A program made the translations under genes and the position numbers. From Alphaproteobacteria bacterium (GTDB lineage Bacteria; Pseudomonadota; Alphaproteobacteria; Rhodobacterales; Rhodobacteraceae): a stretch of DNA of 30,919 nucleotides. Shown here one piece after another: positions 14,548 to 28,685 of this stretch. Every line of letters begins with the position of its first letter. Position 1 is the first letter of the stretch. The DNA lies in the NCBI GenBank assembly GCA_024279075.1, contig JAJRRX010000126.1:1-30919 (forward strand), written 5' to 3'. The notes below the pieces were generated by a model that saw only the letters and a program-made list of their open reading frames with translations, searched no databases and was not told the DNA's origin.

Positions 14548-14709
14548 TGGTGGCCCTCCTGAAAAAACAAAGTTGATGGTTTTTCGGAAGGGATACCCGG
14601 CTGTTATTTCGCTCCGGACCCGGCCTGTGCTGTAACGTAGCCTTGGCGGCAGTCTGTTCCTGCGGTCAACCGGACGCGAGCTTGGGAGCAGCGATCCCCG
14701 ATGCGTTAA

Positions 14710-14738
14710 AGCAGACTCCAAAATAGATCGAAAGTCAA
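14710..14738 (-). promoter_or_regulatory. Candidate capsid (late) promoter
   Basis: TTGACT -35 (14738-14733) immediately after a terminator. The hexamer 17 nt downstream (TCTGCT) is a poor -10. A GANTC site lies at 14714-14718. Confidence 0.4.
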
Positions 14739-14739
14739 G

Positions 14740-14777
14740 AAAAAATTAAGTGGCGGTGAATTTCTCCACCGCCACTT
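14740..14777 (-). terminator. Intrinsic terminator after the scaffold gene
   Basis: Perfect 11-bp stem AAGTGGCGGTG/CACCGCCACTT (14748-14758/14767-14777), followed on - by AATTTTTTCTT. Confidence 0.85.
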
Positions 14778-14801: not shown

Positions 14802-15779
14802 CTATTCTTGCGCAACAATCTTATTCAGGCGCGCTATCTCTTTGCTAATTTCGGCCTGTTTGGCTTTATCGCCTGCCTTCATAGCTTTGCTCCATGGCCC
14901 ATCAGAGGCCATGAGCTGCGCCTTCTTCGCCTTCGCCTCAGCTGGCGTGGTGGTCAGGCCTGCACCGCTGCCAAGGCCTTTCAGGCTGTCCTCGCCCATC
15001 AGGTCCGCAAGGCTAGCAAACATTTTCATCACCATCGGGTCGCCGGTTTGCTTGCTCAGGGCCGAAGCAGCCGCGAGCTGCTCGTCGGCATCCATGCCCG
15101 CCGCCTCCGCCAAAGCCTGAAACGCTGTTTGCGCTTGGCCGATTTTGGCATCTGTCTGGTCGCCCCAGTCCTTTTGCAAGGTGGCGCGCATTTCGTCATT
15201 GGCTTTTTTGAGGTTGCCATCGGCGTTGCCAACAATCGTCCCCATGCGTTCGGCATAAAGCCCTTGCAGCTTTTCCAGCGCGGCGGGCGGAATGCCCTCT
15301 TCAAAGGCGATCTGGCGCGCGCCGTTCATCAGCTCGTCATCCACCGGCATGCCGTCGGGCAGATTCAGCTCGGGCAACTCGTAGCCCTCTGGCTTGTCCG
15401 GCAGGCCAAAAGTTTCGGCATTGGCGCGCATCCACTCGGCGGTGGTCTGCCCTTCAGCGGGGCGGTCCATCAGGCTTTCGGCGGGTTTTCCAAGGCGGGC
15501 CTCGGCATTGCGCCAGCCCTCAATCGCCTTGCCAAGCACCTCGCCCTGGTCTTCCTTCAGCAGGTCTTTCTTGGTCATCCAGTCTTTGGCAGGGGCATAG
15601 GTTTCCCCCTCCCACCAAAGCTTTTCATCACCGCCGCCCTCACCAGTGCCGCCGCCTTCACCTTGGCCGCCATCTCCACCAGCGCCGCCCTCGCCGCCGC
15701 CTTCACCACCAGCGCCGCCTTCATCGGCAGGATACCAAAGCGGGTGGCCGTTAATCATGTTCATCAGGTGCGTGTTCAT
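14802..15779 (-). CDS. Head scaffolding protein (325 aa)
   Basis: Gly/Glu low-complexity N-terminus, RLGKP...GLPDKPEGYEL and LQKDWG motifs, basic C-terminal helix. Lies between portal and capsid genes. Confidence 0.8.
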   Translation of the reverse strand: MNTHLMNMINGHPLWYPADEGGAGGEGGGEGGAGGDGGQGEGGGTGEGGGDEKLWWEGETYAPAKDWMTKKDLLKEDQGEVLGKAIEGWRNAEARLGKPAESLMDRPAEGQTTAEWMRANAETFGLPDKPEGYELPELNLPDGMPVDDELMNGARQIAFEEGIPPAALEKLQGLYAERMGTIVGNADGNLKKANDEMRATLQKDWGDQTDAKIGQAQTAFQALAEAAGMDADEQLAAASALSKQTGDPMVMKMFASLADLMGEDSLKGLGSGAGLTTTPAEAKAKKAQLMASDGPWSKAMKAGDKAKQAEISKEIARLNKIVAQE

Positions 15780-16086
15780 AAGTGTTCTCCTTCAAGAGTT
15801 GGTTAATTTCAAAATTGGAAACGTGCATCATGGCCAAAATGGCGAGGCCAAGGTCTCGGCGGCCGCGATCGTAGGCCAGCTCCAACGCGATGGCGTTAAG
15901 GCGATCAGTCTCGCTCACATCGCCGTAAGCCATGATCTTGGCCATGATGATAATATCTTCAGCCATTTCCGGCTGCTTGGCATTGGCGCTGGACCAGCGC
16001 GCAATGCGGTCACGAACTTCGCGCGGCACCGAGCGGCCGCCAAAGGGGCGCGTCAAAATGCCAAGGCGGGTGAAAAACCCGCTCAT
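15751..16086 (-). CDS. Small head-associated protein (Bbp19-like position, 111 aa)
   Basis: ATGA overlap with portal stop. ...ELAYDRGRRDLGLAILAM motif. Confidence 0.7.
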   Translation of the reverse strand: MSGFFTRLGILTRPFGGRSVPREVRDRIARWSSANAKQPEMAEDIIIMAKIMAYGDVSETDRLNAIALELAYDRGRRDLGLAILAMMHVSNFEINQLLKENTYEHAPDEHD

Positions 16087-17732
16087 GGCGCACCGCCCTC
16101 CGCTTGGGCTTGAGCGAGGTCTTTCACCATGCCAGCGCCGTCTTTGCCCATTTGCATGGCCTGCTGGGCCTGCATGGCTTGTTGGCGATCTGCGGCCATC
16201 TGGTCGGCCTCGTCACGCGAGCGCAGGATGTCGTTGGAAGCGCCACGGGCTTCCACCAACCGCTCGACCAGCTCGTCTTCGTTGATCCGGTCCAGCAAGC
16301 GCGGCTTGGCTTGGGCCAGCGGGGTGAGGTCATTGACCACACGCAGGGCGGCCACGCCCTCGGTGGCCTTCTGGGCCATGCTGGCCGCCGAAAGGTATTT
16401 CACATCCAGCGGCTGGCCCTCGGCCTCGGGTGGGGGTGGCGGAATTTGGCCCGCGCGCCACAGCATGCTAAAGCGCCGCGTGATTTTGCGCACAAGGTAT
16501 TCCTCTTGCAGGCGGCCCATATAGGGGGCCATCAGGCGGGCGTATTGCTCCTGCCGTTCAAGGCTTTCAAGGGTGGAAACCCCAGTTCGTCCCACCATCG
16601 AGCTAAGTGTATACATGAAGATTTCGGCAATATTGCCAGCTTCCTCCCGTTGCATTTCCAGCGAGAGGCCGGTGCCGCGCGAGGTGTCCAGAATGTCCAC
16701 CTGCCTGCGGCCGTTGATCATGCCACCATAGAGCACACCCTCGGGGCGGCGCTGGCCATGCAGGGGCCAGCCGTCCTTGTCGGGGGCGAGCATGGTGGGC
16801 GAGGCGGCAAATTGGGCCGAACGGATGTTGGCTTCCTTCTGCAAATTCAGCAATTTGGAGCCAGCAAGCGCCATATGGCCAAAGCCAGTGCCGTAGGTCT
16901 GGCCAGTTTCGACATCGAGGCGCGGGGTATGGAAGGGCATTTCCATGTAGCCGCTCTCGCGCACCACCGCGCGGCCCTCTTCCGCGCCATAGGTGGATAA
17001 CCAGCGCTTGCCCTTGGGGCCAATATATCCACCCATGAAATCGGTGTTTTTCTGCACATGGTGGTAGAAGGTGAAGTCATCATTGCTACCTTTTTCCACC
17101 GCAACACGGATCTTCTCGGGCAGGTTATCCAGCCCGAATTCAGCGGCGGCTTGGCGGGCTTTCCAGCTGAACTTGCGCACCACCTCCACCACACGGCCCC
17201 AACCGTCAATCGCATACACAATCTCGGCCATCGGGATAGTTACATCGAGGATGCGGCGCTCTTTGGTATTGATTTCATCGTAATTGGCGGCATTGCCAAT
17301 CATCACCGTGTCACCGATAACCTGAAGGGAGGACGGGTAAAACGAGCTGATATTGGGGCCAAAGCTGGCCAGCACGCGCGCGCTCACAGCTTCTTCCCAC
17401 TGCTTCACAGCATGCACCTTGCGGCGGTCCTTATCGCCGATCTGCATACCAAACCACTTGTTGCCAGGGTTCATCATGGTGGACCACATGGTGCTGGTCA
17501 GGGCTTTCTGGTAAAGCACCGGCTCGCTGGAAAGCACCTTGTTGGCGGTTTTCTTGTTGCCGGCATTGGCGCGGAAAGGCAAAGCGCCCATAAAGCGCTT
17601 GATGTCCTGCCAGTCCGGCTTCAGGTGGCTGCGCGCACTGTCCAAATCCTCCCAGCGGGTCACCATTTTATCAACGCGGCTATCCTTTTCCAAAGGGCCA
17701 ACTGTCTCATTCGGGGAGCTATCAAGCGGCAT
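16083..17732 (-). CDS. Portal / head-to-tail connector (549 aa)
   Basis: Size and motifs (VVEVVRKF, PR...GQTYGTG, T.E..ER..., GQIPPPPPE, YLSAASMAQK) typical of T7/BPP-1-type connectors. Confidence 0.92.
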   Translation of the reverse strand: MPLDSSPNETVGPLEKDSRVDKMVTRWEDLDSARSHLKPDWQDIKRFMGALPFRANAGNKKTANKVLSSEPVLYQKALTSTMWSTMMNPGNKWFGMQIGDKDRRKVHAVKQWEEAVSARVLASFGPNISSFYPSSLQVIGDTVMIGNAANYDEINTKERRILDVTIPMAEIVYAIDGWGRVVEVVRKFSWKARQAAAEFGLDNLPEKIRVAVEKGSNDDFTFYHHVQKNTDFMGGYIGPKGKRWLSTYGAEEGRAVVRESGYMEMPFHTPRLDVETGQTYGTGFGHMALAGSKLLNLQKEANIRSAQFAASPTMLAPDKDGWPLHGQRRPEGVLYGGMINGRRQVDILDTSRGTGLSLEMQREEAGNIAEIFMYTLSSMVGRTGVSTLESLERQEQYARLMAPYMGRLQEEYLVRKITRRFSMLWRAGQIPPPPPEAEGQPLDVKYLSAASMAQKATEGVAALRVVNDLTPLAQAKPRLLDRINEDELVERLVEARGASNDILRSRDEADQMAADRQQAMQAQQAMQMGKDGAGMVKDLAQAQAEGGAP

Positions 17733-17922
17733 TGGGCACCCCCCCGAGCGTGTTGGTGGCCGGAATGCCGCGTGGGCTGGTCAGAATGTTGGCGGCGGCA
17801 CCGCCGCGCAACTGGCGCAAGCGCGCCTCGATGTCGCCTTGGCGCTGGCTTTCCTGGTTGGTGGTTGCCGGAATAATGGCAGGGCGCGGGGCGGCGGTGG
17901 CTTGCTTTTGATACAGGCACAT
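17722..17922 (-). CDS. Small virion protein preceding portal (66 aa)
   Basis: SD AGGAG, MC-start, RxxRGG..xILTS..G...TLGG pattern in the usual pre-portal slot. Confidence 0.75.
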   Translation of the reverse strand: MCLYQKQATAAPRPAIIPATTNQESQRQGDIEARLRQLRGGAAANILTSPRGIPATNTLGGVPNAA

Positions 17923-17926
17923 GGGG

Positions 17927-18475
17927 TTAGGTCTCCTTCTGGGGGTAAGATGGGGGGCGGGGGATGTAATCAGCGAGCCAAACCCATTGGTTCAGGTTCA
18001 CCTCGCCACTATGGCCAAAGCCGATCATCTCGGCGTCCAGCTCAAAGCCGATGGCGCGTAGCAGGCTGGGGGCGGTGGGGTGGCCTGCCCAGCTGCGCGC
18101 CTCGATGCGGTGCAGGCCCATGGCACGGGCCTGCGCGGGGAAGCCGTCGCGGATCGCGCGGGCAGCTGGCACCAGCGCGCGCCTCCAAATCCGATGGTCG
18201 CGCGCCAGCATGGCCGCATGGCCAAGCCCGGGCGTGCCACCGCGCACAATCGCCATCACGGCAATCGGCTCGGCATAGGGCGGCGCAACCTGCGCCACAA
18301 AGCACGCGGCCCCCTGTTTTTCCAGCGCCATCCAGTCTGCCAGCATGTCATACGGAAGCGCTTTATCACCGCGCATCACCTCGGCTTCGAGCTGGTCGTT
18401 TTCGTCCAGCATTTCAAAAACACGCAAGGCATCCGGCGGGTTAAATGGCGCAAGGGTCACAAGGGGCCGTGTCAT
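17927..18475 (-). CDS. GNAT-fold protein (T7 gp13-like head assembly factor or acetyltransferase, 182 aa)
   Basis: GLHRIEARSW...LLRAIGFELDA is a RimJ/GNAT-like C-terminal motif. Confidence 0.7.
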   Translation of the reverse strand: MTRPLVTLAPFNPPDALRVFEMLDENDQLEAEVMRGDKALPYDMLADWMALEKQGAACFVAQVAPPYAEPIAVMAIVRGGTPGLGHAAMLARDHRIWRRALVPAARAIRDGFPAQARAMGLHRIEARSWAGHPTAPSLLRAIGFELDAEMIGFGHSGEVNLNQWVWLADYIPRPPSYPQKET

Positions 18476-18487
18476 AGGTCAGGCCTC

Positions 18488-19267
18488 CTAAGCCGCGTCT
18501 TGCTGCGCAGCAATCCGCCGCACCGCCGCCGCCCAGTTTTTCAGGGCATTGTGAAAGCCAGCTGGGCCAGCGGCGATCAAGCCATAAATCTTGACCGTGT
18601 GGATAGGGGCATCGCCGTCAAATTCAGCCCCATTGATCTGCACAAGCTTGGCTTGCAGGGCCGAAATATCGGTGGGCATGTCGCCCAGCTCACCGGCCAG
18701 CAAAATCGCGGCATTCATGTCCTTTTCGTTGATCGCCTGCGGCTTTTTGAGGGCGCGCTCTTTGGCTTTGGCGCGTTTTTTCTTCTCGGCTTCGCGCTTT
18801 TTCGCGCCCGCATCGGCCTCTTTGGCCTTGGCTTCCTCTGCGGCCAGCCGCGCCTTTTCAGCCTTGATCGCCTCAGCATTGTCCTCGGCATCAGCAATGA
18901 TCTTGGCCGCTTTGGCCTCGGCCTGTTCAATAATCACATCAGCATCATTCTGCGCATCTGCAATCTCATCATCCGTCAACTCGGCCTTTTTGTCGGCTTC
19001 AGAGGTTATATCAGCCGCCTGCGCCTTGGCATCCTCAATGATCTTGGTGGCTTCCTTCGCGCCAATGGTTGCGATCTCCTGCACCTTGTTGGTGCCATCC
19101 TCCACAATTTTAGCCGCCTTGGCCTCGGCCTCGGCAATCAGCCCACTGGCACGGGCTTCTGCATCAGCCACAATATCGGTGACCTTGGCATCATCTGTCA
19201 GAGCTTCAGGCGCACCCTTCACTTCATCAGCGGACAGGGTATCACCTGCAATTTTGGTCTTGCTCAT
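18488..19267 (-). CDS. Hendecad coiled-coil protein, function unknown (259 aa)
   Basis: 11-residue repeats (IVADAEARASG, LIAEAEAKAAK, IIEDAKAQAAD, IIEQAEAKAAK...), a Lys-rich linker and a globular C-terminus. Confidence 0.8.
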   Translation of the reverse strand: MSKTKIAGDTLSADEVKGAPEALTDDAKVTDIVADAEARASGLIAEAEAKAAKIVEDGTNKVQEIATIGAKEATKIIEDAKAQAADITSEADKKAELTDDEIADAQNDADVIIEQAEAKAAKIIADAEDNAEAIKAEKARLAAEEAKAKEADAGAKKREAEKKKRAKAKERALKKPQAINEKDMNAAILLAGELGDMPTDISALQAKLVQINGAEFDGDAPIHTVKIYGLIAAGPAGFHNALKNWAAAVRRIAAQQDAA

Positions 19268-19270
19268 AAT

Positions 19271-21019
19271 CTAATCTCCATAGGGGTTGGTTACGTCATA
19301 TCCGGTCTCGATCCCGCCACCGTTCATCGGCGGGCCTCCGTTATGGCCGAGTTTTTCAGGCACATCATTGCGCCCAAAACTGTTGGGGCTGGAGCCGTCA
19401 GGCTTCGCCTTTGAAAGCAGCAGGTATTGCAGCCCGTCCATCACATTGGCCTCGACCTTGCTCTTGTCAGGCACCTTGCGCTTGTCGCCGCTGTTGTTAA
19501 TCTCTTCGGCCCACACATAGCGCGCCTCAAAGCCTGCGATCAGGTATTTGCAGCTCGGGTCAATCAATATCCCGGGCTTGCCATTGCGGATAAATTCGAG
19601 CTGGGCGCGCACCGCTTCCAGCCGCGGGTTAATCCGGTTGGTGCCCATGCGCTGCGGCTTCACCCGAAAGCCCGCCGCCTTGCCCACCATCAGGTTCCAT
19701 GTGGCGTTTTCATCCGCCGCTTGGCTGGCGCCGTGTTCGCCCGCCATGTCGCCCCAGGCACCACCCACGCGCATGCCAGGAAAGCGCTTGCGCAGTATAT
19801 CCTTCAGCTCTTGGCCAAATTTCACCGCCATAAGTCGCTTTTTGGGGAACATCAGCTCGGCCAAAATCACCCAATGACCAGGCTCATGGTATTGCGCCAC
19901 CACGGCCGCACCCTTGAAGCCTTGGTCAAGGCCAATATAGAGCGGCTTGCCGGCATCGGGCTGCAATTTGGTCGGGGATACATGGATTTGGCGGCTGAAT
20001 TCATCCTCAAAAACAGGGTCACCCACCTTCAGGTAAACCGTTTGGTTATAAACCAGCCGCTTCACTAGGTCGCCCCGCCCTGCCAGCTTCATGGTGGCGA
20101 TCTGGGTCGGATAATAGCTGGCGGGCAGGTTTTGCAGGTTTTCGCACCTGTCCTCGCCATAGCCAGCCTGTTTGTGGAAGCCGATCTCTATCGGGTGGAA
20201 ATCGGTGCCGGCCTTTTCCGCCTCGGCTTGCAGCGCCCCGTTCAGCGTGGCAATCACCTCTTTGCGCTTTTCCTCGTCATAGAAAAAATCAAAGGACCAG
20301 TTATCCTCATCCGGTGCGTTGAAATCCCCCACCAGCTGGCCATAGTCGCGATATTTTGCAGGGTAACCCTTAAAATGCGCCTGATCGGGAAAGCGCTTGA
20401 TGCGGGTAATGCCGTTCACCAGCACATCGAGCGGGTTGGTGTCCATCTCATGCAGCCAAATGTCGGTGGTCTGAATGCCCCGCATCGCCGCCACCACATC
20501 ATCGCCAAAAGCCATGAACTCCACGGTGAACTCGATCCGCCCGTGTTCATCCTCAAACCACATCACAAAGTTAACCGGCCCGCCGCGCCCGCCAGACCAC
20601 TCTCCAAGGTCTTTCGGGAATACCTTTAGAAAATCCGGAATGGTGGTAGACCAAAGCTGGCGATAGGTGGCGCGGGTCACCATCAGCTTGTAGCGCCGCA
20701 CCCCGTCAATCACCGACATGGGCATCATCACCGCGCGCCGCAGGCGGGATTTGAGCAAGGTGGTGGTCTTGCCCGAGCCAACAGGCCCGTTGATCCCCAC
20801 CACGGCGCTATCATCCCAATACATTTTCTCCGCCACCCGACCGGGGAAATCCAGCGCCTCGATATCGGGCTTGTCAGTGGCCAGCTCGCCGGTTATCGTC
20901 GCCAAGCCGTCCTCGATCGACAGGGTGTGAAAATCAGCATCGCTCATTCCCCCTGACCCCGTGGCCGGATTTTCCTGCAACCCCGTGCCCCCGTCCAAAT
21001 TGTCCATCGTCGCGGTCAT
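19271..21019 (-). CDS. terL: Terminase large subunit (582 aa)
   Basis: Walker A GPVGSGKT, Walker-B-like IWLHE, RNase-H-like YIGLDQG and C-terminal MDGLQYL. Start at ATG 21019 (SD GAGGT); ATG 20947 is an alternative. Confidence 0.92.
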   Translation of the reverse strand: MTATMDNLDGGTGLQENPATGSGGMSDADFHTLSIEDGLATITGELATDKPDIEALDFPGRVAEKMYWDDSAVVGINGPVGSGKTTTLLKSRLRRAVMMPMSVIDGVRRYKLMVTRATYRQLWSTTIPDFLKVFPKDLGEWSGGRGGPVNFVMWFEDEHGRIEFTVEFMAFGDDVVAAMRGIQTTDIWLHEMDTNPLDVLVNGITRIKRFPDQAHFKGYPAKYRDYGQLVGDFNAPDEDNWSFDFFYDEEKRKEVIATLNGALQAEAEKAGTDFHPIEIGFHKQAGYGEDRCENLQNLPASYYPTQIATMKLAGRGDLVKRLVYNQTVYLKVGDPVFEDEFSRQIHVSPTKLQPDAGKPLYIGLDQGFKGAAVVAQYHEPGHWVILAELMFPKKRLMAVKFGQELKDILRKRFPGMRVGGAWGDMAGEHGASQAADENATWNLMVGKAAGFRVKPQRMGTNRINPRLEAVRAQLEFIRNGKPGILIDPSCKYLIAGFEARYVWAEEINNSGDKRKVPDKSKVEANVMDGLQYLLLSKAKPDGSSPNSFGRNDVPEKLGHNGGPPMNGGGIETGYDVTNPYGD

Positions 21020-21225
21020 GTTTTTGCCACCTCGATTTGAAAATGCCCCTTGGCCTCTGTGCGAGGGGCAGAGGGGGCGAGCGCGGGGGGCACCCCCCCC
21101 GTTTTTGAAATCCGGCCGCTGCTGGCCAAAAAGCAAGGGGGGGTGGGGGCAATCGTCCGAGCGCAACTATTTTCTAAACAGTAGGTTTGCAGGTGATTGT
21201 TGTTTGTTTTCAATAGGTTGCTCAT
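21016..21225 (-). CDS. 69-codon ORF bridging terS and terL; product not protein-like
   Basis: ATGA overlap with the terS stop and ATGA overlap with the terL start. Confidence 0.35.
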   Translation of the reverse strand: MSNLLKTNNNHLQTYCLENSCARTIAPTPPCFLASSGRISKTGGVPPALAPSAPRTEAKGHFQIEVAKT

Positions 21226-21857
21226 ATCGTCCGACCATCCTTTAAATTGTCGCCGCTTTCAATTTCGCTAACCGCTTGATTTTGTACAATTTCTTTTGGC
21301 ATAGGTGGCGGTGACATCGCCCGCCCTTTGCGGCCCTCAATCACGGTTGGCGCGGGGCCATCGCTGCCGCCTGGCATCACAATCTGGGTGATCTGCGAGG
21401 TGTTCACGTTCACATCAGGCGTGACCTTACCCAGCCCGAAGGGCAGCACGGCCTCGGCCCGCCTGCCCATATCCTTGTAAAGATCAGTAAACACTGCCAG
21501 CCGCTGGCCCACCGAAGCCTGAAAGTCGCCAGGATGCTGCCCGCCAGCCCATGCCAACACCTCTTCGGCGCGCTGCATGGCCAAAATGTGAGGCGGCAAG
21601 CGGCTGTCCAGCCCTGCCATCAGGGCCAGCACGTCCTCGGGCTGTCGGAACCCCTTGGCGGCCAGCATGGCCTTGAGCTGGGAGCTGCTCTTGTTTTTCG
21701 CCCCCTTCGGACGGCCAGCACCGCGCTTTTCCGGCACCAGCTCGCCGCCCTCGCCATCATCAGACGGCAGAAACGTCAGCTGCTCGCCCAGCTCCCGCGC
21801 CTGATCCAGCCGCTTGGCAATCGCCTCTGCCTCAATCTCTGCCTTGGCCCTTTTCAT
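21222..21857 (-). CDS. terS: Terminase small subunit (211 aa)
   Basis: KRGAGRPKGAKNK motif, size and position upstream of terL. Confidence 0.7.
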   Translation of the reverse strand: MKRAKAEIEAEAIAKRLDQARELGEQLTFLPSDDGEGGELVPEKRGAGRPKGAKNKSSSQLKAMLAAKGFRQPEDVLALMAGLDSRLPPHILAMQRAEEVLAWAGGQHPGDFQASVGQRLAVFTDLYKDMGRRAEAVLPFGLGKVTPDVNVNTSQITQIVMPGGSDGPAPTVIEGRKGRAMSPPPMPKEIVQNQAVSEIESGDNLKDGRTI

Positions 21858-22372
21858 CCAATAAATCCCCGATAAACAAACGGTTTTTTCATCATATTGA
21901 ATGAAAACAATGACTTACCACTATTTAGGCAAGCGAGCTTAACAGGCTTGCACCACCTAGCGGTTGCGAGGTGCAACGGTGCAACAAAAGCGTTGCACCG
22001 GCGTTGCAGTAAAACTTTTAATGAAATCAGAGCCTTATAATACTTATGCAACGGTGCAACGGTGCAACGGTATATATGCGTCGTGTGCGCGCGTGTGTGT
22101 GTGTGTGTGCGCGCATACGCGAGGCTTTTGCGCGCAAAACCGTTGCACCGTTGCACTTGCTGGCTAAAGCCCTGATTTTGTTTGTTTTTTTGCTGCAACA
22201 TTGCTGCAACATTGGTGCAACAAAATCGAAAATGTTGCACCCTGCAACCGTGGGTATAAGGAAACCGACGCGCACGGGCTGCAAAGCCTACGTTACGCGT
22301 TTGGGCGCATCCGGTCAAGGGTGCGGGGTGAAGAAAACGGCGGCGCGGGGTCTGGGGCGCGGGATGGGGCAT
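21854..22372 (-). CDS. 172-codon ORF spanning the putative origin; product not protein-like
   Basis: SD AAGGA 7 nt before ATG 22372. Stop overlaps the terS ATG (ATGA). Confidence 0.3.
   Translation of the reverse strand: MPHPAPQTPRRRFLHPAPLTGCAQTRNVGFAARARRFPYTHGCRVQHFRFCCTNVAAMLQQKNKQNQGFSQQVQRCNGFARKSLAYARTHTHTRAHTTHIYRCTVAPLHKYYKALISLKVLLQRRCNAFVAPLHLATARWCKPVKLACLNSGKSLFSFNMMKKPFVYRGFIG
21963..22248. repeat. Iteron-like TGCAAC/GTTGCA array, putative replication origin
   Basis: 9 TGCAAC (21972, 21980, 22047, 22055, 22063, 22194, 22205, 22216, 22243) and 5 GTTGCA (21992, 22003, 22142, 22150, 22234) in 8- and 11-bp periods, immediately downstream of the helicase gene. Confidence 0.75.
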
Positions 22373-22383
22373 AACGCAGTCCT

Positions 22384-24222
22384 TTACTCGAAATCTTGGA
22401 TGTCGGCGGGCTGTGGGGGCTTAGGCGGGGCCTCTGGCGGCTCTGCCGCCTCCGGCGAGCCTTCTTCGCCAAAAAGCCCAGGGATCGAAGCCAGCGGGAA
22501 CTTCCAGCACCGGCTCTTCACCATGTTGAAGCTAAGCGCACTCGTCGCGGTTGCGCTCGGAATGCGCCGCGTGGCTTGTGACCACACACCATTGCTGGCG
22601 CTTGATGAATACCAGCGGGTGTCTTTGAACAGGCGCGCGAGGCCGTCATGGCTGTTGGCAATGGCGAGCTGTGCGCCCTCCTTGCGGCCATAGACGCGAA
22701 TGCCGATTGAGCTTAAAGCGTGGGTTGCTTTGGCCATATCCTCGCCATCATCCAGCCCTGCGGCCACCAGTATCCAGCGGCCCACGGTGAGCTTTTCACC
22801 GCCGCGAAATACATCGAGCTGCTGGCCGAAAAGATAGTTGAGGCAGCGCTGCCAGTCGCTACTCTGCTGAGCCTGGTCTTGCACCACGCGGGCCGATAGC
22901 TTCTCGCTCCAGTTGTTAAGGCGGGCCTCGTCCGGCTCGCTGTCAAATAGCACTAAATCGGCCATGGTCAGCAGGGTGCCGAACTGGTCGCAGCCACGGT
23001 GGCTGTGGCCGGCCGCGGCCAGCGCGCCGCGATAGGCGTTGAGCGTGTCGTGCATCCGGTCCCAATTTGCCAGCACCATGCTGCGCAAAGCTTGGCCCAC
23101 TCTGCCCCATTTTTTGGGGTCCGGCTTGGGGGCCTTGGAGCCTTTTTTAAGGGTGAGCAGGTCCAGCACCGCGATGCGGCTTATGTCCTGGTCAAGCATA
23201 TCAGGAACAAGGATCGAGGAAAACAGGTAGCTGTTTTTTACCAGAAACTCGCTGGCCTTGTGGTCCTGCCCGCCACGAATAACCTTGCCGCCTGAGCTGG
23301 CGAGGCGGGCGAGCTTGACCACGTCTTTCACCCGGCGGCTGTCGGCCTCGGCCTCCAGCTCGTCAATCGCCACGGGGATGGTGCTTTGGCCGGTATATTG
23401 CCGGATCGCCGCCTCGGTCGCCCCTGCGGGCTGTAGCAGGCTGTTTTTGCCAAAAATATCGCCGATGATCTCTTGCAGGGTCGATTTGCCGGTGCCCGCG
23501 TCGCCGGTGAGCCACACCATGGGCCGCCAGCGCAGGGCACCGCCAAACAGGGCCGAGCATATCCAGCCAAGCAGCAAATAAGCGTCCACGTCGCCCCGGA
23601 GCCAGTGCCAGCTCTTTAAGGTGGCGAGCAGCTCGGCGGCGGGGGATTGGTCATCGGCGCTTATGAATTCGGTAAGGGGGCGCGGGGTGCGGATATCTGA
23701 CGGGTAAACATAGCCGTCAATCTCGCCTGGTTCTTTCCAGTTGCCCTTGTAAAGCACCGCGCCGCCGCAATGCAGAATGATGCCGCCCTCGCCATCAGGC
23801 CATGCGCCAAGCCCGCGCACGCGCTCGGTGGCGTTCCACACGCCCTTATCGGTGCAGGCGCGCACCATGGCCTCGGCGGCGGCCGCCTGATCAAAGCCGA
23901 TCACCTGCGGCGGCGAGGTTTCGCTGCCCTTTGACCAGCGCGGGAATTCGCCTTTCAGCAGGTCCACCCGCCCGCCAAATATGCCGCGAATGCGATCAAG
24001 GTCATGCTTTTTAACATCGGCAAGCTGGCCCAGATAATCGAGATAATAATAAACAGGCCCCTGCACGCCAAGCGCGGTGACCGGAGAATTCGGAAAGATC
24101 ATCCCGCGCGTCTCCAGCGGCCCCTCGGCCGCCTCGTGCTCGCTGGCTTTGGGCGGGTCCAGCTCGCCGCGCAGCAGCTCAAGGCTGGGCTTTTTCGGGT
24201 CTGTTGTGGCGGGCTTGGTCAT
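22384..24222 (-). CDS. Replicative helicase / P-loop NTPase (SF3-like, 612 aa)
   Basis: Walker A GDAGTGKST, Walker B PVAIDE. Located after the Toprim primase. Confidence 0.85.
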   Translation of the reverse strand: MTKPATTDPKKPSLELLRGELDPPKASEHEAAEGPLETRGMIFPNSPVTALGVQGPVYYYLDYLGQLADVKKHDLDRIRGIFGGRVDLLKGEFPRWSKGSETSPPQVIGFDQAAAAEAMVRACTDKGVWNATERVRGLGAWPDGEGGIILHCGGAVLYKGNWKEPGEIDGYVYPSDIRTPRPLTEFISADDQSPAAELLATLKSWHWLRGDVDAYLLLGWICSALFGGALRWRPMVWLTGDAGTGKSTLQEIIGDIFGKNSLLQPAGATEAAIRQYTGQSTIPVAIDELEAEADSRRVKDVVKLARLASSGGKVIRGGQDHKASEFLVKNSYLFSSILVPDMLDQDISRIAVLDLLTLKKGSKAPKPDPKKWGRVGQALRSMVLANWDRMHDTLNAYRGALAAAGHSHRGCDQFGTLLTMADLVLFDSEPDEARLNNWSEKLSARVVQDQAQQSSDWQRCLNYLFGQQLDVFRGGEKLTVGRWILVAAGLDDGEDMAKATHALSSIGIRVYGRKEGAQLAIANSHDGLARLFKDTRWYSSSASNGVWSQATRRIPSATATSALSFNMVKSRCWKFPLASIPGLFGEEGSPEAAEPPEAPPKPPQPADIQDFE

Positions 24223-24965
24223 AGGGCAAAACTTTTCTTTTGATCAGGGGTTGACAACAGCGCCAATGGCGCTAAATTGTAAGATGTCACAAGGGCAATG
24301 AAGCCCGCCAAATAGGAGATGACATTATGAAAAATGAAGCCAAAATTTACAAAAATATGCGCGAAATAGCAGCGGATTTGGAACCCAATCAAATCAAGCT
24401 GGTCATCATGAAAAACTACAATGACTTCGAGGTTCCTACGGAGGCCATCAGCGCTTTGCTGGATGTCCTCGAAGCTAAAATCGGCAGCGCCGAATTTGTC
24501 GGCTTTTGCAACATCCTCAACCAATAAGGAGCCGAAAAAATGACAAATTTTGAGAAAGCCGTTCGCGAAGGTTACAAGATTGAAAAATACGGGGATAATA
24601 GCCAGTGGTTCGTCGTTGACAATTTCGGCACTTGCTGGGGCTATTATTTCACCGAGCGTAAGGCTATTAACGCCATGAGCCGAATTGGCAAGGGCTACAA
24701 CTAAAACAACTGGCCCGCTTCGGTGGGCCATGAAAAACAGGGAGACACCATGACCCCCGAAGAATTCAAAGCCGCCCGCAAATCCTTGGGCCTTACGCAA
24801 GCCCAGCTCGGCCACGTGCTGGATACCGCGCCGCAAACCATCCGCAAATGGGAAATGCCGGCGGGTCGCAGCACAGCGCGCGGGGTTAACCCCGTAGCGG
24901 CCCGCGCCATGGGCTGGATGCTGGCAGGCTTCCGCCCACCCGAATTTCCGAAGGATCAGCGCCAA
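24219..24965 (-). CDS. 248-codon ORF antisense to the three-gene cassette, coupled to the helicase start
   Basis: GGGGAGG SD then in-frame TTG at 24965, 2 nt after the upstream stop. Ends with a TGA overlapping the helicase ATG. Composition is shadow-like. Confidence 0.3.
   Translation of the reverse strand: MALILRKFGWAEACQHPAHGAGRYGVNPARCAATRRHFPFADGLRRGIQHVAELGLRKAQGFAGGFEFFGGHGVSLFFMAHRSGPVVLVVALANSAHGVNSLTLGEIIAPASAEIVNDEPLAIIPVFFNLVTFANGFLKICHFFGSLLVEDVAKADKFGAADFSFEDIQQSADGLRRNLEVIVVFHDDQLDLIGFQIRCYFAHIFVNFGFIFHNVISYLAGFIALVTSYNLAPLALLSTPDQKKSFAL
24251..24278 (+). promoter_or_regulatory. Sigma70-type promoter with a 15-bp palindromic operator
   Basis: TTGACA (24251)-N16-TAAATT (24273). 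AGCGCCA-A-TGGCGCT at 24259-24273. Confidence 0.75.
24327..24527 (+). CDS. Hypothetical protein (66 aa), cassette gene 1
   Basis: SD AGGAG, AT-rich (33% GC in 24301-24360). Confidence 0.8.
   Translation: MKNEAKIYKNMREIAADLEPNQIKLVIMKNYNDFEVPTEAISALLDVLEAKIGSAEFVGFCNILNQ
24540..24704 (+). CDS. Hypothetical protein (54 aa), cassette gene 2
   Basis: Below the ORF-track cutoff. SD AAGGAG. MTNFEKAVREGYKIEKYGDNSQWFVVDNFGTCWGYYFTERKAINAMSRIGKGYN. Confidence 0.75.
   Translation: MTNFEKAVREGYKIEKYGDNSQWFVVDNFGTCWGYYFTERKAINAMSRIGKGYN
24711..24730 (+). other. C(UUCG)G tetraloop hairpin between cassette genes 2 and 3
   Basis: TGGCCCGC-TTCG-GTGGGCCA 8-bp stem with one G-U pair. Confidence 0.65.
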
Positions 24966-24971
24966 GCCTAA
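24750..24971 (+). CDS. XRE-family helix-turn-helix protein (73 aa), cassette gene 3
   Basis: MTPEEFKAARKSLGLTQAQLGHVL....QTIRKWE is a classic HTH. SD GGGAG. Confidence 0.88.
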   Translation: MTPEEFKAARKSLGLTQAQLGHVLDTAPQTIRKWEMPAGRSTARGVNPVAARAMGWMLAGFRPPEFPKDQRQA

Positions 24972-25150
24972 ACCCTCCCCATAGCCGCGCGGCGGCGGCG
25001 TTGGCGGGTCATTTTGTCGGCGCTCGGGGTGTTTTCCCAGATCTTGCGGTGCGCCTCCAGCCGCGCCGCTGCCCGCTTGTTGGCGGGGGTAGGCTTTTTT
25101 TGGCCGTAATGTGGCTTGAAGAGTTGCTTCAAAAGATCGTAAAAATTCAT
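24968..25150 (-). CDS. Small basic hypothetical protein (60 aa)
   Basis: MNFYDLLKQLF...RQRRRRAAMGRV. ATGA overlap with the primase stop. Confidence 0.65.
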   Translation of the reverse strand: MNFYDLLKQLFKPHYGQKKPTPANKRAAARLEAHRKIWENTPSADKMTRQRRRRAAMGRV

Positions 25151-26298
25151 GCTGCACCTGCGCTTTCCTGTTGGTTTTTGATCATCATCAGGGCATCGTT
25201 TAGGTCTTTGCCCCCATGGGTGTTTTTCCAAATGCTCACCTCGCGGCCTTGCTTCAAAAAATGAGTTTGCGCCTGGTCAATCAGCCGCAGCTGCTCTTTG
25301 CCGTCATCATTATCGGCCACAATGGTGACGCGGGTAATGGCGGCAGGTAGCTGCACCTCTTTGAGATTGCCAAGCGAAATGGCACAAAGCACGCGCGCGT
25401 GGGGGTGGATCACCGCCACGCTCAGCGCGTCCTCGATGCCCTCGGTAATGTAAACATGGTCACCAGCTGGCGCTTTGCTCAGGGGCGCGGCTTTGCCGCC
25501 GCGCGGGCCGGTGCCGGTCCAAAGGCGGATATAGCCGCCCTGCATCGAGCCAAACACTTTTTTAGGGCTGGGCACAGGGGCCTTGCCCCAGTTTCCGGCA
25601 TCATCTTGTGCAAGATACGTGCGGTGAACGCCCCAAAATTCCGGCGCGCTGCCATCCTCATGCGCAGGGCCATAAATGGCGGCGATCATGGCGGGGTAGG
25701 GGGTTTCGCTATATTCGCCGGTTTCGGGGTCCGTATGGAAATAGGTGCAATGGGGCATGTAGCGCAAAGAGCCAGGGGCGCGGCCGAGCACATCGAGGCC
25801 GATGGCGCGGTTGGCGAGGTAGGCCGCCACAGGCGTGCCTGTCAGATCCTCTTGCGCCTGTATGAACATCGCATGCGCGCGACCGCGCTTTTGCTTGGTC
25901 AGGGCCTCGGCATCCTGCGCGGCGCGGGCGCGGCGGGCCTTGGCTTCGGCTTGCTTGCGCAGGCGCAGGGCCTTTTGCTCGGGGGTTTCGGTATCCATGC
26001 CCAAAAACTGGCGGGCCTCGGTAAGCGCGGTGCGGGCATCGCAGCCAAGCGCATAACGGATCAGGTCCAGCATGTCGCCATCTTCACCGCTGGCATGGTC
26101 ATGGTAGCGTCCGGCATAGGCGCCGGTCAGGTTTACATAAAACGAGCCAACGGCGCGGTCGGTGCGCCAGGGGTTCAGCGCCCAGTATTTGCCCTTGTCC
26201 ACCCGCCCGCCTGGCGCATAGCGCTCGGCCACCTCGAGGGTGCGGGCCTTTAGGGCCTCGGCAATCTCCTGAATGGTGGGCAGGGCGGGGCGGCTCAT
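25147..26298 (-). CDS. Toprim DNA primase (383 aa)
   Basis: Toprim motifs YITEGIEDALS, IVADND and GKDLND. N-terminal degenerate DnaG zinc-finger-like region (SFYV...GDMLDLI). Confidence 0.9.
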   Translation of the reverse strand: MSRPALPTIQEIAEALKARTLEVAERYAPGGRVDKGKYWALNPWRTDRAVGSFYVNLTGAYAGRYHDHASGEDGDMLDLIRYALGCDARTALTEARQFLGMDTETPEQKALRLRKQAEAKARRARAAQDAEALTKQKRGRAHAMFIQAQEDLTGTPVAAYLANRAIGLDVLGRAPGSLRYMPHCTYFHTDPETGEYSETPYPAMIAAIYGPAHEDGSAPEFWGVHRTYLAQDDAGNWGKAPVPSPKKVFGSMQGGYIRLWTGTGPRGGKAAPLSKAPAGDHVYITEGIEDALSVAVIHPHARVLCAISLGNLKEVQLPAAITRVTIVADNDDGKEQLRLIDQAQTHFLKQGREVSIWKNTHGGKDLNDALMMIKNQQESAGAA

Positions 26299-26301
26299 GG
26301 C

Positions 26302-27366
26302 TTAGGCCGCCTTGCGGGCAAGCTGGGCATGGGCGGCAAGGGTCTGCTTGAGCTTGGTCTGGCGCTCGGTGAACGGGCCTGCGGGCATCGCCTCGATCAG
26401 GGCGTTATAGCGCGCCACGCAATCCGGCTTGGTGCGCTCCAGAATGATTGACACATCGAGCATAGGCAGGCCCCGGTGATGCTCGCTCACAAGATCAAGG
26501 TCATCCTCGATCGGCCAGTTTTCATCAGGGCAGGGGCGGGGCAAAATGCCCTTGCCGCCCTCGGCCTTTGAGGCAGTTGTGGGGGCGGCGGAAACGGGGC
26601 CAACCACCTTTGAGGCGGGCGTGACTGCCGGTTTTTCCTGAGCATCCCGCAGATTATAAAACTTTTGCGTCACACCCTTAACAGGCCGGTTCAACTTCAG
26701 CGCAATCACCTTAAACGGCACGGCTTCTGCGCGCATCTCCAGCAAGCGCTTTTCTTCGTCCAGTGTCCACGGGCCTTGCTCATAGATAGGCGTGGCTGGG
26801 ATTTTGCTCTCTGGCTCCATCTCCGCCTTTATCCGCTCGATGCGCGCCGCGCAGTTCTTGGTCAGCCAGAACATTTTCGAGGCGCAGGTGCGCTCTTTGC
26901 GGCCCAGCAGCTCGGTCAGCGCCTTGAACGGCTTACCTTGCAACCGCCCCTTGATCAGCACGTCCTCTTCATCTTTGGTCCAGCGCACGCCATGGCTGGA
27001 ATGGTCTTCGAGCCTTTCCTCTACCGCCTCCGGCGCTTCGGTCTGCTCCGGCACCGGCGCAGGGCTAAAGGCCGCTTGCGGGGCTATCGCGGTGCGCGGC
27101 TGCGGTGCAGGGCTTTCTGGCTCTGTCTCTATGTCCGCCAGCACGTCCTTCATGTCGCGCTCTGCCATGCTTTTCAAAAATTCTGGTGTTCGTATTTCAA
27201 TCGTTGGCCTGCCTTCGATCTCGATGCGATCTTCCGGCACGCATCCGTGTATCTCCACCGCGTCCAGCACTATGCGCAAAACGCCGAAGTTAAACTCAAC
27301 CGGCAGGTTGAGGCCTTCGATGTCGTTCATAATGGCGTCAATGTCTGTTCCCGAAAATCGCTTCAT
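26302..27366 (-). CDS. Protein with three Myb/SANT/GcrA-like HTH repeats (354 aa)
   Basis: WTKDEED.L...G....L...LGR; WTLDEEK.L......IA.KLNR; WPIEDD..L.......+...LERT. Start refined to MKRFSG (ATGA overlap). Confidence 0.8.
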   Translation of the reverse strand: MKRFSGTDIDAIMNDIEGLNLPVEFNFGVLRIVLDAVEIHGCVPEDRIEIEGRPTIEIRTPEFLKSMAERDMKDVLADIETEPESPAPQPRTAIAPQAAFSPAPVPEQTEAPEAVEERLEDHSSHGVRWTKDEEDVLIKGRLQGKPFKALTELLGRKERTCASKMFWLTKNCAARIERIKAEMEPESKIPATPIYEQGPWTLDEEKRLLEMRAEAVPFKVIALKLNRPVKGVTQKFYNLRDAQEKPAVTPASKVVGPVSAAPTTASKAEGGKGILPRPCPDENWPIEDDLDLVSEHHRGLPMLDVSIILERTKPDCVARYNALIEAMPAGPFTERQTKLKQTLAAHAQLARKAA

Positions 27367-27695
27367 GGTTTTTTCCCTTGGCTTTGCTGCCACGCGCCCA
27401 TTGAAAGCGCGTGTTTCCAGCGGTGGATTTTTTCCAGGCTGGCAGCCAGGTGAAACTGGGCCGCTGTCAGGCCCGCGCTGCCCCGCTTGGGGTGGTAATG
27501 CGCCACCAGCTCGTCAACGGCAGTGGCAAGGTCATCAATCAATCGGTTTTCGCGGGTCACCTCTGGCAGCACGTCCTTGAAGGTGGCGAGCGCATCCTGC
27601 ATGGCCGAGTGGTTGCGCACCCGCGCCACCGCGATCTCGGTCGCGGCATTAATCAGGCAATGGTCCGCAAGGCTGAACTTTTTGGGCTTATCCAT
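27363..27695 (-). CDS. Hypothetical early protein (110 aa)
   Basis: Start refined to MDKPKK (8-nt overlap ATGGATAA). Stop overlaps the next ATG. Confidence 0.7.
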   Translation of the reverse strand: MDKPKKFSLADHCLINAATEIAVARVRNHSAMQDALATFKDVLPEVTRENRLIDDLATAVDELVAHYHPKRGSAGLTAAQFHLAASLEKIHRWKHALSMGAWQQSQGKKP

Positions 27696-28029
27696 TGATA
27701 TCCGCCCTTTGCTGCCAGGCATACATATCCGGCCCTGCGGCCTCGGCCGCGTGCAGCGCCGCCTCGGTGGCAATGGCGCGGGCAAAGCGCGCGGGCCCAA
27801 TGTAGCTTTGCAAAAATGCGCCCAGCTGCTCACCAGCGGCCACCTGGTCGCGCTGGCACAGGTTGTTAAACACCAGCACCGCCGCGCACACCTCGTCATC
27901 CTCACGGAAAAACGCCAGCGCATCGGTGAGCAGGTTCAGCCGGTCACGCAAGCCAAGCTGCCCCGCCTTTGCGGCCATGCTCACCTTGGTTAGCCGCAGG
28001 CCAAATGCTATTTTCGGGTCAAATCCCAT
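27688..28029 (-). CDS. Hypothetical early protein (113 aa)
   Basis: Helical protein ending in a WQQRADI motif. Overlaps the downstream start. Confidence 0.72.
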   Translation of the reverse strand: MGFDPKIAFGLRLTKVSMAAKAGQLGLRDRLNLLTDALAFFREDDEVCAAVLVFNNLCQRDQVAAGEQLGAFLQSYIGPARFARAIATEAALHAAEAAGPDMYAWQQRADING

Positions 28030-28306
28030 AGCCGCCCCCGCGCGAAACGGGCAGAAACAACGCGGGGGCAGCTCTCAGCGCTACTACGCTGCGGCTCAAT
28101 CCGGCTAAAACAGCCGACACCGGAGAGGGGAATTCACGCAAGGCGCGGCGTGGGTGTCTGACGGGACTTAGCCGCCACGCCTTGCGATTTTCGGCGGCAC
28201 GCCTGCTCTGCGCCGAAAATGGGAATAAAAAGCCGCGCGGCGCTACTTGGGGCCGCGCGGAAGTCCAACAGGGAAGTTTAACAAAAATACTCGTTACAAA
28301 ACTCAT
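28019..28306 (-). CDS. 95-codon ORF after cro spanning a terminator and an SD-sequestering hairpin
   Basis: ATGA overlap with the cro stop. Ends 11 nt into the next gene. Confidence 0.4.
   Translation of the reverse strand: MSFVTSIFVKLPCWTSARPQVAPRGFLFPFSAQSRRAAENRKAWRLSPVRHPRRALREFPSPVSAVLAGLSRSVVALRAAPALFLPVSRGGGYGI
28224..28260 (-). terminator. tR1-like intrinsic terminator downstream of cro
   Basis: CCGCGCGGC/GCCGCGCGG 9-bp stem (28233-28241/28252-28260), followed on - by CTTTTTATT. Confidence 0.7.
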
Positions 28307-28590
28307 GCCGCCACCTGCACGCTGTCCGGCGCGGGCATCAGCGCGGCTATCTCGGCCTCGCTCCCGCCATAAATCAGGTGGTCCGCCGTCAGCGCAATGC
28401 GCCGCTGCGCAGCCGCCGCCAGCAAGGTGCGCATAATGCGCGGGCTGGGGATATCCCCTGCGTCACGCATTTTGGACCCGTTCTTCCACGCAATCGGCGT
28501 CTTTTCGTGCTGGCCAAGGATGGCCGCCACGCCCTTATAGCCGCCAAGCAGGCGGAAAGTGACATCGGTTGGTGTAAGGTGGCTACTCAT
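28303..28590 (-). CDS. Cro-like repressor (95 aa)
   Basis: LGGYKGVAAILG...T.IAW...G.IP HTH pattern. Divergent from cI. Confidence 0.85.
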   Translation of the reverse strand: MSSHLTPTDVTFRLLGGYKGVAAILGQHEKTPIAWKNGSKMRDAGDIPSPRIMRTLLAAAAQRRIALTADHLIYGGSEAEIAALMPAPDSVQVAA

Positions 28591-28653
28591 GCCCTAGGCT
28601 TAGATTAACAGGTGTGAGCCTGTCAATGGGGTTTGTTCAAAAAATGAACAAAC
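28571..28653. promoter_or_regulatory. cro/cI divergent promoter-operator region
   Basis: TTGACA on - at 28626-28621. Palindrome GTTTGTTCA-N5-TGAACAAAC at 28631-28653. 18-bp box GGTGTAAGGTGGCTACTC at 28571-28588. Confidence 0.75.
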
Positions 28654-28685
28654 AAATTCGAGAGCTGCGCATTATATCTCACAGT

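Follow-up and report, generated by a model that had tools for sequence, protein, structure and literature searches.

Can a reading frame be conserved for the sake of being translated, whatever peptide it encodes? The question is raised by a 30,919-nucleotide (nt) stretch of DNA, hereafter the window, which is the whole of contig JAJRRX010000126.1 in an 82%-complete metagenome-assembled genome of an alphaproteobacterium (GCA_024279075.1). The window is mostly phage-like and is best explained as a contig of a temperate podovirus-like Rhodobacteraceae prophage, in which early, replication and packaging genes form a tightly packed train on the minus strand. An initial annotation of this sequence claimed that the minus strand, from a cro-like gene (28590) to the stop codon of a scaffold/protease-like gene (14802), leaves no untranslated gap above 12 nt once four open reading frames (ORFs) that do not look like protein genes are counted, and the tiling is indeed there. 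Here we describe these four bridge ORFs, B1 to B4, as they occur in the window and among its relatives, about 55 distinct prophages and viral contigs. The comparison that the annotation had proposed, namely whether frames and junctions are kept while peptides diverge, came out positive for B1, B3 and B4, with frames and junctions conserved across at least 17 diverged lineages and a ratio of nonsynonymous to synonymous change (dN/dS) of about 1; it did not do so for the fourth ORF, B2.

Four bridging frames in the window

All four bridge ORFs were found at the coordinates at which they had been described:

28019..28306, minus strand: B1; ATG start, 95 codons; it begins with an ATGA overlap on the cro stop and extends 11 nt into the next gene.
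24219..24965, minus strand: B2; TTG start, 248 codons; ATGA overlap onto the helicase-like gene.
21854..22372, minus strand: B3; ATG start, 172 codons; it starts 11 nt past the helicase stop and has an ATGA overlap on terS.
21016..21225, minus strand: B4; ATG start, 69 codons; ATGA overlaps at both ends.

The gene labels cro, terS and helicase are positional or come from weak matches. The names that the initial annotation gave to the elements crossed by the four ORFs hold: a terminator under B1, an antisense cassette under B2, an origin under B3 and the spacer between terS and terL under B4. Its statement that three of the four bridges end in an exact ATGA overlap with the next gene is likewise accurate, the three being B2, B3 and B4. 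The frame of B2 is also open from a GTG at 25157, and a coding-like 60-codon ORF, absent from the annotation's list, fills the 181 nt that separate the primase stop from the start of B2.

The bridges had been credited with plausible initiation signals, and their junctions are tight, with cores resembling the Shine-Dalgarno (SD) sequence enriched upstream of the starts of B3, B4 and B1. Strong SD cores precede 64% of the starts of B3, 47% of those of B4 and 32% of those of B1, compared with 11% of random positions, and their frequency at the bridges equals or exceeds that at the operon's real genes. The description of the bridges as not protein-like is also borne out. None of the four peptides has a match in Pfam or PHROG, and in all four the GC contents of the first, second and third codon positions (GC1/2/3) are flat, for example 0.59/0.61/0.58 in B1, unlike every other ORF of the chain.

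How surprising is it that such frames are open? In single-window dinucleotide shuffles the chance of openness was 0.077 for B1 and 0.0066 for B3, and about 0.49 for B4, a value that is uninformative. The same procedure gave 0.0004 for B2, for which it is the wrong null; a shadow-frame null gave about 0.005. In the host genome, where bridging ORFs were sorted by composition and peptide into small proteins and non-protein-like frames, only about 2 of the 54 comparable gaps between co-directional genes have a non-protein-like ORF across them, and 13 more have an evident small protein. The window by itself is only suggestive, and the relatives are decisive.

Conserved frames and diverging peptides among relatives

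Relatives were collected with the large terminase, TerL, as query, since the helicase-like protein gave few: none in genome contigs, one viral-contig locus, and one distant hit in 60 related genomes. The related sequences that TerL retrieved were 53 contigs of IMG/VR and 22 loci in genomes, with identities of 53-78% apart from one partial contig at 94%. The organisms named in the genomic records all belong to the Rhodobacteraceae (Sulfitobacter, Salipiger, Mameliella, Palleronia, Puniceibacterium and Cereibacter), a few records carrying only Pseudomonadota or Rhodobacterales as a name. Relatives in isolate genomes point to a Rhodobacteraceae host for the window as well, whose contig was placed in its genome bin by binning alone. 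Among isolated phages none exceeded 32% TerL identity, the nearest being Burkholderia phage BcepC6B, and a blastn comparison of the region with isolated phages gave just two short matches; no annotated reference phage exists for the family.

The interval between the helicase-like gene and terS, which B3 occupies, measures 417-526 nt in these loci and falls into 17 clusters below 70% nucleotide identity. A single same-strand ORF runs across it in 51 of 52 loci, with a mean shuffle probability of 0.007, beginning -10 to +11 nt from the helicase stop and ending -3 to +14 nt from the terS start; in the sole exception the frame is open, but without a nearby start codon. The other five frames of the same DNA provide an internal control. 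The bridging frame has 0 stops, whereas the two remaining sense frames and all three antisense ones have 4.7-6.5 each, and only about 1 in 175 of these control frames is open. Moreover, when the differences between gap-free pairs of B3 sequences (20-35% divergent) were re-dealt randomly among sites, the frame remained open in just 2-3% of trials per pair.

A different kind of regularity is found under B4, where the length of the spacer between terS and terL is constrained in register. In 35 distinct loci with a recognisable TerL start, spacer lengths modulo 3 are distributed 28:7:0 over residues 1, 0 and 2 (p = 1e-8); TerL begins with ATGA in 33 of the 35 loci, and the frame that ends in the TGA of this ATGA is open back to the terS stop in 32. 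At the other end of the train, the cro stop shares an ATGA with a following start codon in 36 of 40 distinct loci. The ORF beginning at this junction has 51-123 codons in most loci, usually shows a non-coding-like GC pattern, and runs into the next conserved gene.

The frequent stops or frameshifts in relatives that the initial annotation had named as fatal to its proposal were not found. Its expectation that indels would come in multiples of three stood in part. In close pairs, to which the indel analysis was confined (pairwise alignments at 70% identity or above gave artefactual 1-nt gaps), the differences are indels of 6 or 12 nt or 1-nt indels that offset each other in pairs, so that lengths shift by multiples of three or the shift is compensated; the part that failed is a single uncompensated 1-nt indel, between loci L022 and L023. 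As far as the compared sequences can tell, the openness of B1, B3 and B4 is not a matter of chance.

The peptides behave differently from the frames. Substitutions in B3 and B4 are spread equally over the three codon positions, in close and in intermediate pairs, and dN/dS amounts to 0.65-1.6 for B3 and 0.45-1.9 for B4, compared with 0.02-0.3 for the helicase-like gene and TerL, in which change is mostly at the third position. For B1, with few informative pairs, pN/pS is about 0.4-1.6, against 0-0.4 for cro. Over the family, GC1/2/3 is 0.56/0.53/0.54 in B3, an intermediate 0.65/0.60/0.71 in B4, and 0.67/0.49/0.80 in real genes. AlphaFold2, given family alignments of 32-36 sequences, predicted no fold for B3 (predicted local distance difference test, pLDDT, 57; predicted template modelling score, pTM, 0.23) or for B4 (pLDDT 61, pTM 0.13). 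What appear to be peptide motifs in B3 are its iterons, its alternating tract and the SD of terS (AAGGAGG, read as 'KKGGF'), and the B3 peptide is replaced wholesale whenever the iteron word changes.

The bridges therefore lack what marks a conventional gene, namely purifying selection, a codon-position composition (B4 being intermediate) and membership in a family or a predicted fold, and they have what is expected of an ORF retained for its translation only, that is, a kept frame and position with a peptide free to vary. The comparison shows selection on the open frame, its register, its junctions and the underlying DNA motifs, and none on the peptide.

Elements beneath the frames and the gene train

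Three of the elements crossed by the bridges can be delimited in the window:

28224..28260, minus strand: intrinsic-terminator-like hairpin inside B1, with a 9-bp GC stem and a 10-nt loop, then CTTTTTATT.
21941..22253, no strand assigned: origin-like array under B3, in which (G)GTGCAAC(G) occurs at least 16 times, in both orientations, on the two sides of a tract of alternating purines and pyrimidines (22082-22121).
24327..24971, plus strand: antisense three-gene cassette opposite B2, encoding 66, 54 and 82 amino acids (aa), the last XRE-HTH-like (helix-turn-helix), all in one codon register.

The hairpin that follows cro reads from 28260 to 28224, with the arms CCGCGCGGC/GCCGCGCGG and then a T run. 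In relatives, 14 of 36 post-cro ORFs contain a similar terminator-like site, compared with 5.9% of random same-strand segments. In Rfam, only sub-threshold matches, to SorX/SorY, fell on this terminator hairpin.

Under B3, the copies of GGTGCAAC that flank the alternating tract of the window have counterparts in the relatives, where 8-13 copies of a 7-9-nt word stand at near-fixed positions on either side of 16-40 nt of alternating purines and pyrimidines. The pattern of orientations, +,+,-,-,+,+ | tract | -,-,+,+,-,-, is the same in all lineages. The words themselves are lineage-specific (GTGCAAC, CACAACG, CTACGAC, CCATACC, CCACTAC, GGTAACA, TAACACA and others). The DNA of B3 is itself under selection, its divergence being 2-6 times lower than that of third codon positions in the neighbouring genes. 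This layout resembles the pri-rep-ori module of the Staphylococcus aureus pathogenicity islands (SaPIs), in which 6-12 short iterons flank an easily melted centre, with opposite orientation on each side, and in which the ori is described as lying downstream of the rep reading frame (PMC9371898). As in SaPIs and other phage-inducible chromosomal islands (PICIs), a primase gene and an initiator-helicase-like gene are followed by repeats, with short lineage-specific iterons placed in opposite orientations around a central tract; a primase gene upstream of the helicase-like gene and a two-sided iteron layout are both present. However, the centre here is an alternating purine-pyrimidine tract and not plainly AT-rich, and the origin is kept translatable. 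Replicons of the SaPI type also have, immediately before their repeats, a self-loading initiator-helicase whose C-terminal domain binds DNA; the identity of the helicase here rests on weak matches. By its layout the element under B3 matches a SaPI-type origin and is a candidate for one.

Two side observations concern the same interval. The iteron word changes while copy number, spacing and orientation are almost fixed, which makes the family a natural series for the recognition code of the initiator. In addition, a conserved block lies 20-60 nt 5' of terS (21858-21900), of the form cTAAcCCnyTGAAA...AAAAAAGGGGGTTTT; it could be a late promoter, an operator or the terS ribosome-binding site.

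B4 overlies an invariant palindrome of a C run and a G run (CCCCsGGGGG), a TGATyGrAAATCA-type palindrome and further conserved blocks. In the palindrome CTGATyGAAAATCAG, compensatory changes are found in 4 of 6 pairs. Third positions in the B4 blocks are as conserved as the first two, and the blocks contain AT-rich codons that are disfavoured by the family's GC3 of about 80%. Our guess is that the palindromes form a packaging site, an RNA hairpin or an operator for a protein such as TerL. At the terS end of the window no slippery site was evident for a -1 frameshift that would fuse terS with B4 or B4 with terL.

Otherwise near-identical prophages of the family exchange modules, with recombination breakpoints that flank the bridge ORFs, because in L010 and L012 terS and TerL are 3% divergent while the origin is 35% different, and in L021 and L055, the one informative pair of its kind, B3 stays with the helicase-like gene (1% aa divergence in the latter) while terS has diverged by 24%.

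B2 is of another nature. Shadow ORFs are familiar, as are non-contiguous operons or excludons, in which antisense genes lie inside an operon, and both bear on this bridge: B2 is an in-register antisense frame, and the cassette is convergent with the operon transcript. Its frame runs in exact antisense register with the three plus-strand genes and can be closed only opposite TTA, CTA or TCA, none of which is present among the 11 leucine and 6 serine codons of the cassette. B2 is largely an ordinary shadow ORF, because its in-gene part stays open in 36% of synonymous resamplings with phage codon usage. Its peculiarity is that all three genes share one register (a 1 in 9 event) and that the frame crosses 161 nt of spacers to reach the ATGA of the helicase-like gene; an ordinary shadow ORF needs neither. 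In two further loci, L016 and L026, three or four antisense genes in one register are matched by a sense ORF of 248 or 416 codons. These cassettes have just the XRE-like gene in common with the window, at 74-79% identity and at an equivalent place, beside unrelated small genes, and the three antisense-cassette loci are not fully independent. The phase-aligned cassettes are suggestive of a possible fourth case of the arrangement proposed below, a weaker one than B1, B3 and B4. The cassette may be a moron or a toxin-antitoxin-like module inside a replication operon.

The genes that the bridges connect follow in the order cro-like gene, two small genes, Myb-repeat regulator, primase, helicase-like gene, putative terS, TerL, portal, scaffold/protease-like gene and capsid:

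28614-29306: cI-like HTH/S24 repressor, divergent from the cro-like gene.
28303..28590, minus strand: cro-like first gene of the operon, 95 aa; a positional label; divergent from the cI-like repressor.
26302-27393, minus strand: Myb-like regulator candidate, 363 aa; weak Myb-like DNA-binding matches; PHROG 'transcriptional regulator, D5-like'.
25147-26298, minus strand: primase; DUF7146 and Toprim_3; phrog_510 DNA primase.
24968..25150, minus strand: small coding-like ORF, 60 aa; ATGA overlap with the primase stop; GC1/2/3 0.57/0.46/0.74.
22384..24222, minus strand: helicase-like replication protein, 612 aa; phrog_21086; C-terminal part of phrog_35358 'DNA primase'.
21222..21857, minus strand: putative small terminase (terS), 211 aa; a positional label.
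19271..21019, minus strand: large terminase TerL, 582 aa from the ATG at 21019; phrog_2.
14802..19267, minus strand: rest of the gap-free chain, with three small ORFs, the portal gene, a 111-aa ORF and the scaffold/protease-like gene.
17732-16083, minus strand: T7-type portal; PF12236.
15779-14802, minus strand: scaffold/protease-like gene.

The cro-like gene has homologues at the equivalent position in relatives and no HTH match in Pfam. For the helicase-like protein, the Pfam matches (P-loop, RNA_helicase, SF3-helicase and DUF5906) are all below threshold, and no PDB relative was found by sequence. The start of TerL is kept as ATGA(G/C)CGCGA in relatives. The 363-aa Myb-like protein is a candidate phage transcription factor and could bear on late expression or antitermination. 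The gene that comes next in the train after the scaffold/protease-like gene encodes a T7-type capsid protein. The tiling ends at the scaffold stop, just past which lies a strong 13-bp hairpin with a T run (14748-14777, minus strand), and the capsid frame is open for about 170-200 nt 5' of its likely ATG (14550-14721), this extension being non-protein-like. The interval between scaffold and capsid was considered as a negative control and dropped, its gene content being too variable.

Proposed ribosome carriage and its alternatives

Messenger RNA that is left untranslated is prone to Rho-dependent polarity; terminator hairpins can be suppressed by a ribosome that follows closely, the pyrBI leader being an example; and ATGA overlaps support coupling by termination and reinitiation. 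Against this background, we consider it reasonably probable that B1, B3 and B4 are relay ORFs, that is, translated, peptide-neutral frames laid over cis-acting elements whose function is the carriage of ribosomes. Each of these ORFs has its own SD-like signal, starts at or near the upstream stop, and stays open until the next gene begins. Three cis elements interrupt the train, namely the post-cro hairpin, the SaPI-type origin and the terS-terL palindromes, each of them overlaid by such a frame, so that ribosomes would be carried over 160-520 nt that would otherwise go untranslated. The read-through transcript would then be shielded from Rho loading and decay, the post-cro hairpin would be suppressed when translation follows transcription closely, and ribosomes would be delivered to the next start site or would unfold it. 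B2 would fit as the stop-poor shadow frame of the antisense cassette, made continuous by the phase alignment of its genes. Ribosome occupancy would be the selected property, and its purpose may be protection against Rho, which the host encodes, protection against decay, or translational coupling; coupling or mRNA-decay protection would fit equally as well as Rho shielding.

Several observations weigh against this account. It presupposes that the bridges are translated, which we infer, and that cro through scaffold lie on a single transcript, which is assumed. If the conserved block 5' of terS is a late promoter or an operator, as it may be, B3 would be irrelevant to late expression, and terS has a strongly conserved SD of its own, so that coupling is not obviously needed there. 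The C/G ratio of bridge RNA is 1.03-1.21, compared with 0.87-0.95 in coding RNA, and does not mark the bridges as unusually good substrates for Rho. A dN/dS of about 1 can also come from constraint at the DNA level that masks weak selection on the peptide. Finally, the constraint on B4 is strong and not absolute, because about 10-20% of terS-terL spacers are unbridged under the rules used and the uncompensated 1-nt indel breaks B4 in L023 as compared with L022.

It would be tempting to dismiss the tiling as chance, helped by the ordinary, functionless shadow ORFs of GC-rich sequence. At 58-60% GC, long ORFs often arise spuriously, the pattern was picked after the sequence had been read, the window-only shuffles leave B1 (0.077) and B4 (about 0.49) unremarkable, and the in-gene part of B2 survives 36% of synonymous resamplings. 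However, the frames persist throughout the family, across at least 17 diverged lineages, while the remaining five frames of the same DNA are not open, and the permutation test, the spacer register and the host-genome baseline all disagree with chance. Even in the case of B2, a common register of the antisense genes is found in three loci. For B1, B3 and B4 this explanation is already contradicted, and as a whole we regard it as scarcely tenable. It is also conceivable that B1, B3 and B4 are real and unusual small proteins, disordered, fast-evolving and biased in composition, whose products are needed and whose genes merely happen to contain DNA elements. Such an arrangement would have precedent, cis sites inside functional genes being well known (lambda O, P22 gene 3), and the conserved positions, SD-like signals and tight junctions of the bridges would suit it, as would the annotation of some of them by gene callers as hypothetical proteins and, in B4, a weakly coding-like GC3 of 0.71 with an alignable peptide pattern. 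Yet dN/dS lies around 1, the three codon positions change equally, the composition of B3 is flat, compensated frameshifts are tolerated, and neither a family match nor a predicted fold was obtained. The conserved 'peptide' blocks are DNA motifs, with third positions kept and disfavoured AT-rich codons used, and the peptide is exchanged together with the iteron word. We therefore consider small proteins unlikely.

A third possibility shares the premise of translation and differs in what it is for: the frames could be open solely for translational coupling, with reinitiation or the unfolding of GC-rich mRNA setting the expression ratio of the next gene, and with no role for Rho or terminators. 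The strongly kept ATGA junctions (36 of 40 at cro/B1, 33 of 35 at B4/terL) speak for this, as do the end of B3, always within -3 to +14 nt of the terS start, and the weakness of some downstream SDs, the helicase-like gene having a strong core in 29% of loci. On the other hand, the conserved AAGGAGG-like SD of terS sits inside the last codons of B3, and SD-like cores precede terL in about half of loci, so that initiation need not depend on ribosomes arriving from upstream. The geometry of the B3 junctions also varies, and the enrichment of terminator hairpins inside B1 would be left unexplained. Coupling as the sole function seems to us rather improbable.

Relay ORFs, if this is what the bridges are, can be set beside three further kinds of known system. 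In the attenuator leaders of trp and pyrBI, and in short 5'-leader ORFs that shield against Rho, it is translation and not the product that matters; to our knowledge, ORFs valued only for being translated have been known only as such short 5' leader peptides. The bridges are like leader peptides and upstream ORFs in that frame and position are kept, the peptide is unconstrained, and the proposed action is through ribosome occupancy, and B1 covers a terminator hairpin as an attenuator leader does. They differ in having 51-172 codons (compared with 10-30), in lying inside an operon between genes and not at its 5' end, in overlying DNA elements such as an origin and palindromes, and in having no evident sensing role. 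A second parallel is offered by the lambda origin, located in gene O, and by the pac site of P22, located in its gene 3. There as here, an origin or packaging-type site is contained in an ORF of the operon, with transcription and translation running through it. Those genes, however, encode functional proteins under purifying selection, whereas the bridges, with dN/dS around 1, lack both a codon-position signature and a predicted fold; we know of no origin or pac site in a translated gene other than inside a functional protein.

The third parallel is with the N/Q antitermination of lambdoid phages, which the proposed role resembles in taking early transcription past a post-cro terminator and long non-coding stretches into later genes, with ribosomes instead of a modifier of RNA polymerase. 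In the chain, PHROG and Pfam searches gave no N/Q-type match and Rfam no hit above threshold, and no nut/qut sites or N/Q homologue were recognised; such proteins are poorly conserved, so that their absence is not thereby established. We found no description in the literature of operon-internal, peptide-neutral long ORFs. What would be new here is the occurrence of long ORFs of this kind over three different cis elements, conserved across a phage family.

Whether a temperate phage family uses relay ORFs of 50-170 codons as a principle of genome design, placing them over the origin, a post-cro terminator, a packaging-region site and, by way of phase-aligned morons, antisense cassettes as well, such that ribosomes never leave an early-to-late transcript of 12-16 kb and antitermination factors are replaced, is a proposition that we regard as evenly balanced. 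If it is true, the phages would possess a factor-free way past terminators and Rho over long cis sites, and an operon of theirs could contain an origin midway and still be continuous; the phase-aligned antisense cassettes hint, in turn, at a rule for where and how morons can insert. Some conserved phage ORFs would be selected for translation alone, which annotation skips or calls hypothetical proteins, and evolutionary screens for dN/dS below 1 would miss them. Since relatives reside in named sequenced strains, several of them in culture collections (NBRC, DSM, CGMCC), the family may be suited to work on Rho polarity and on how transcription and translation are coupled in Alphaproteobacteria. 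Among these strains are Sulfitobacter profundi NBRC 113428, Salipiger marinus DSM 26424, Mameliella alba CGMCC 1.7290, Palleronia pelagia DSM 26893 and Puniceibacterium antarcticum SM1211. Relay ORFs would then form a class of their own among conserved ORFs, to be counted neither as genes nor as non-coding DNA.

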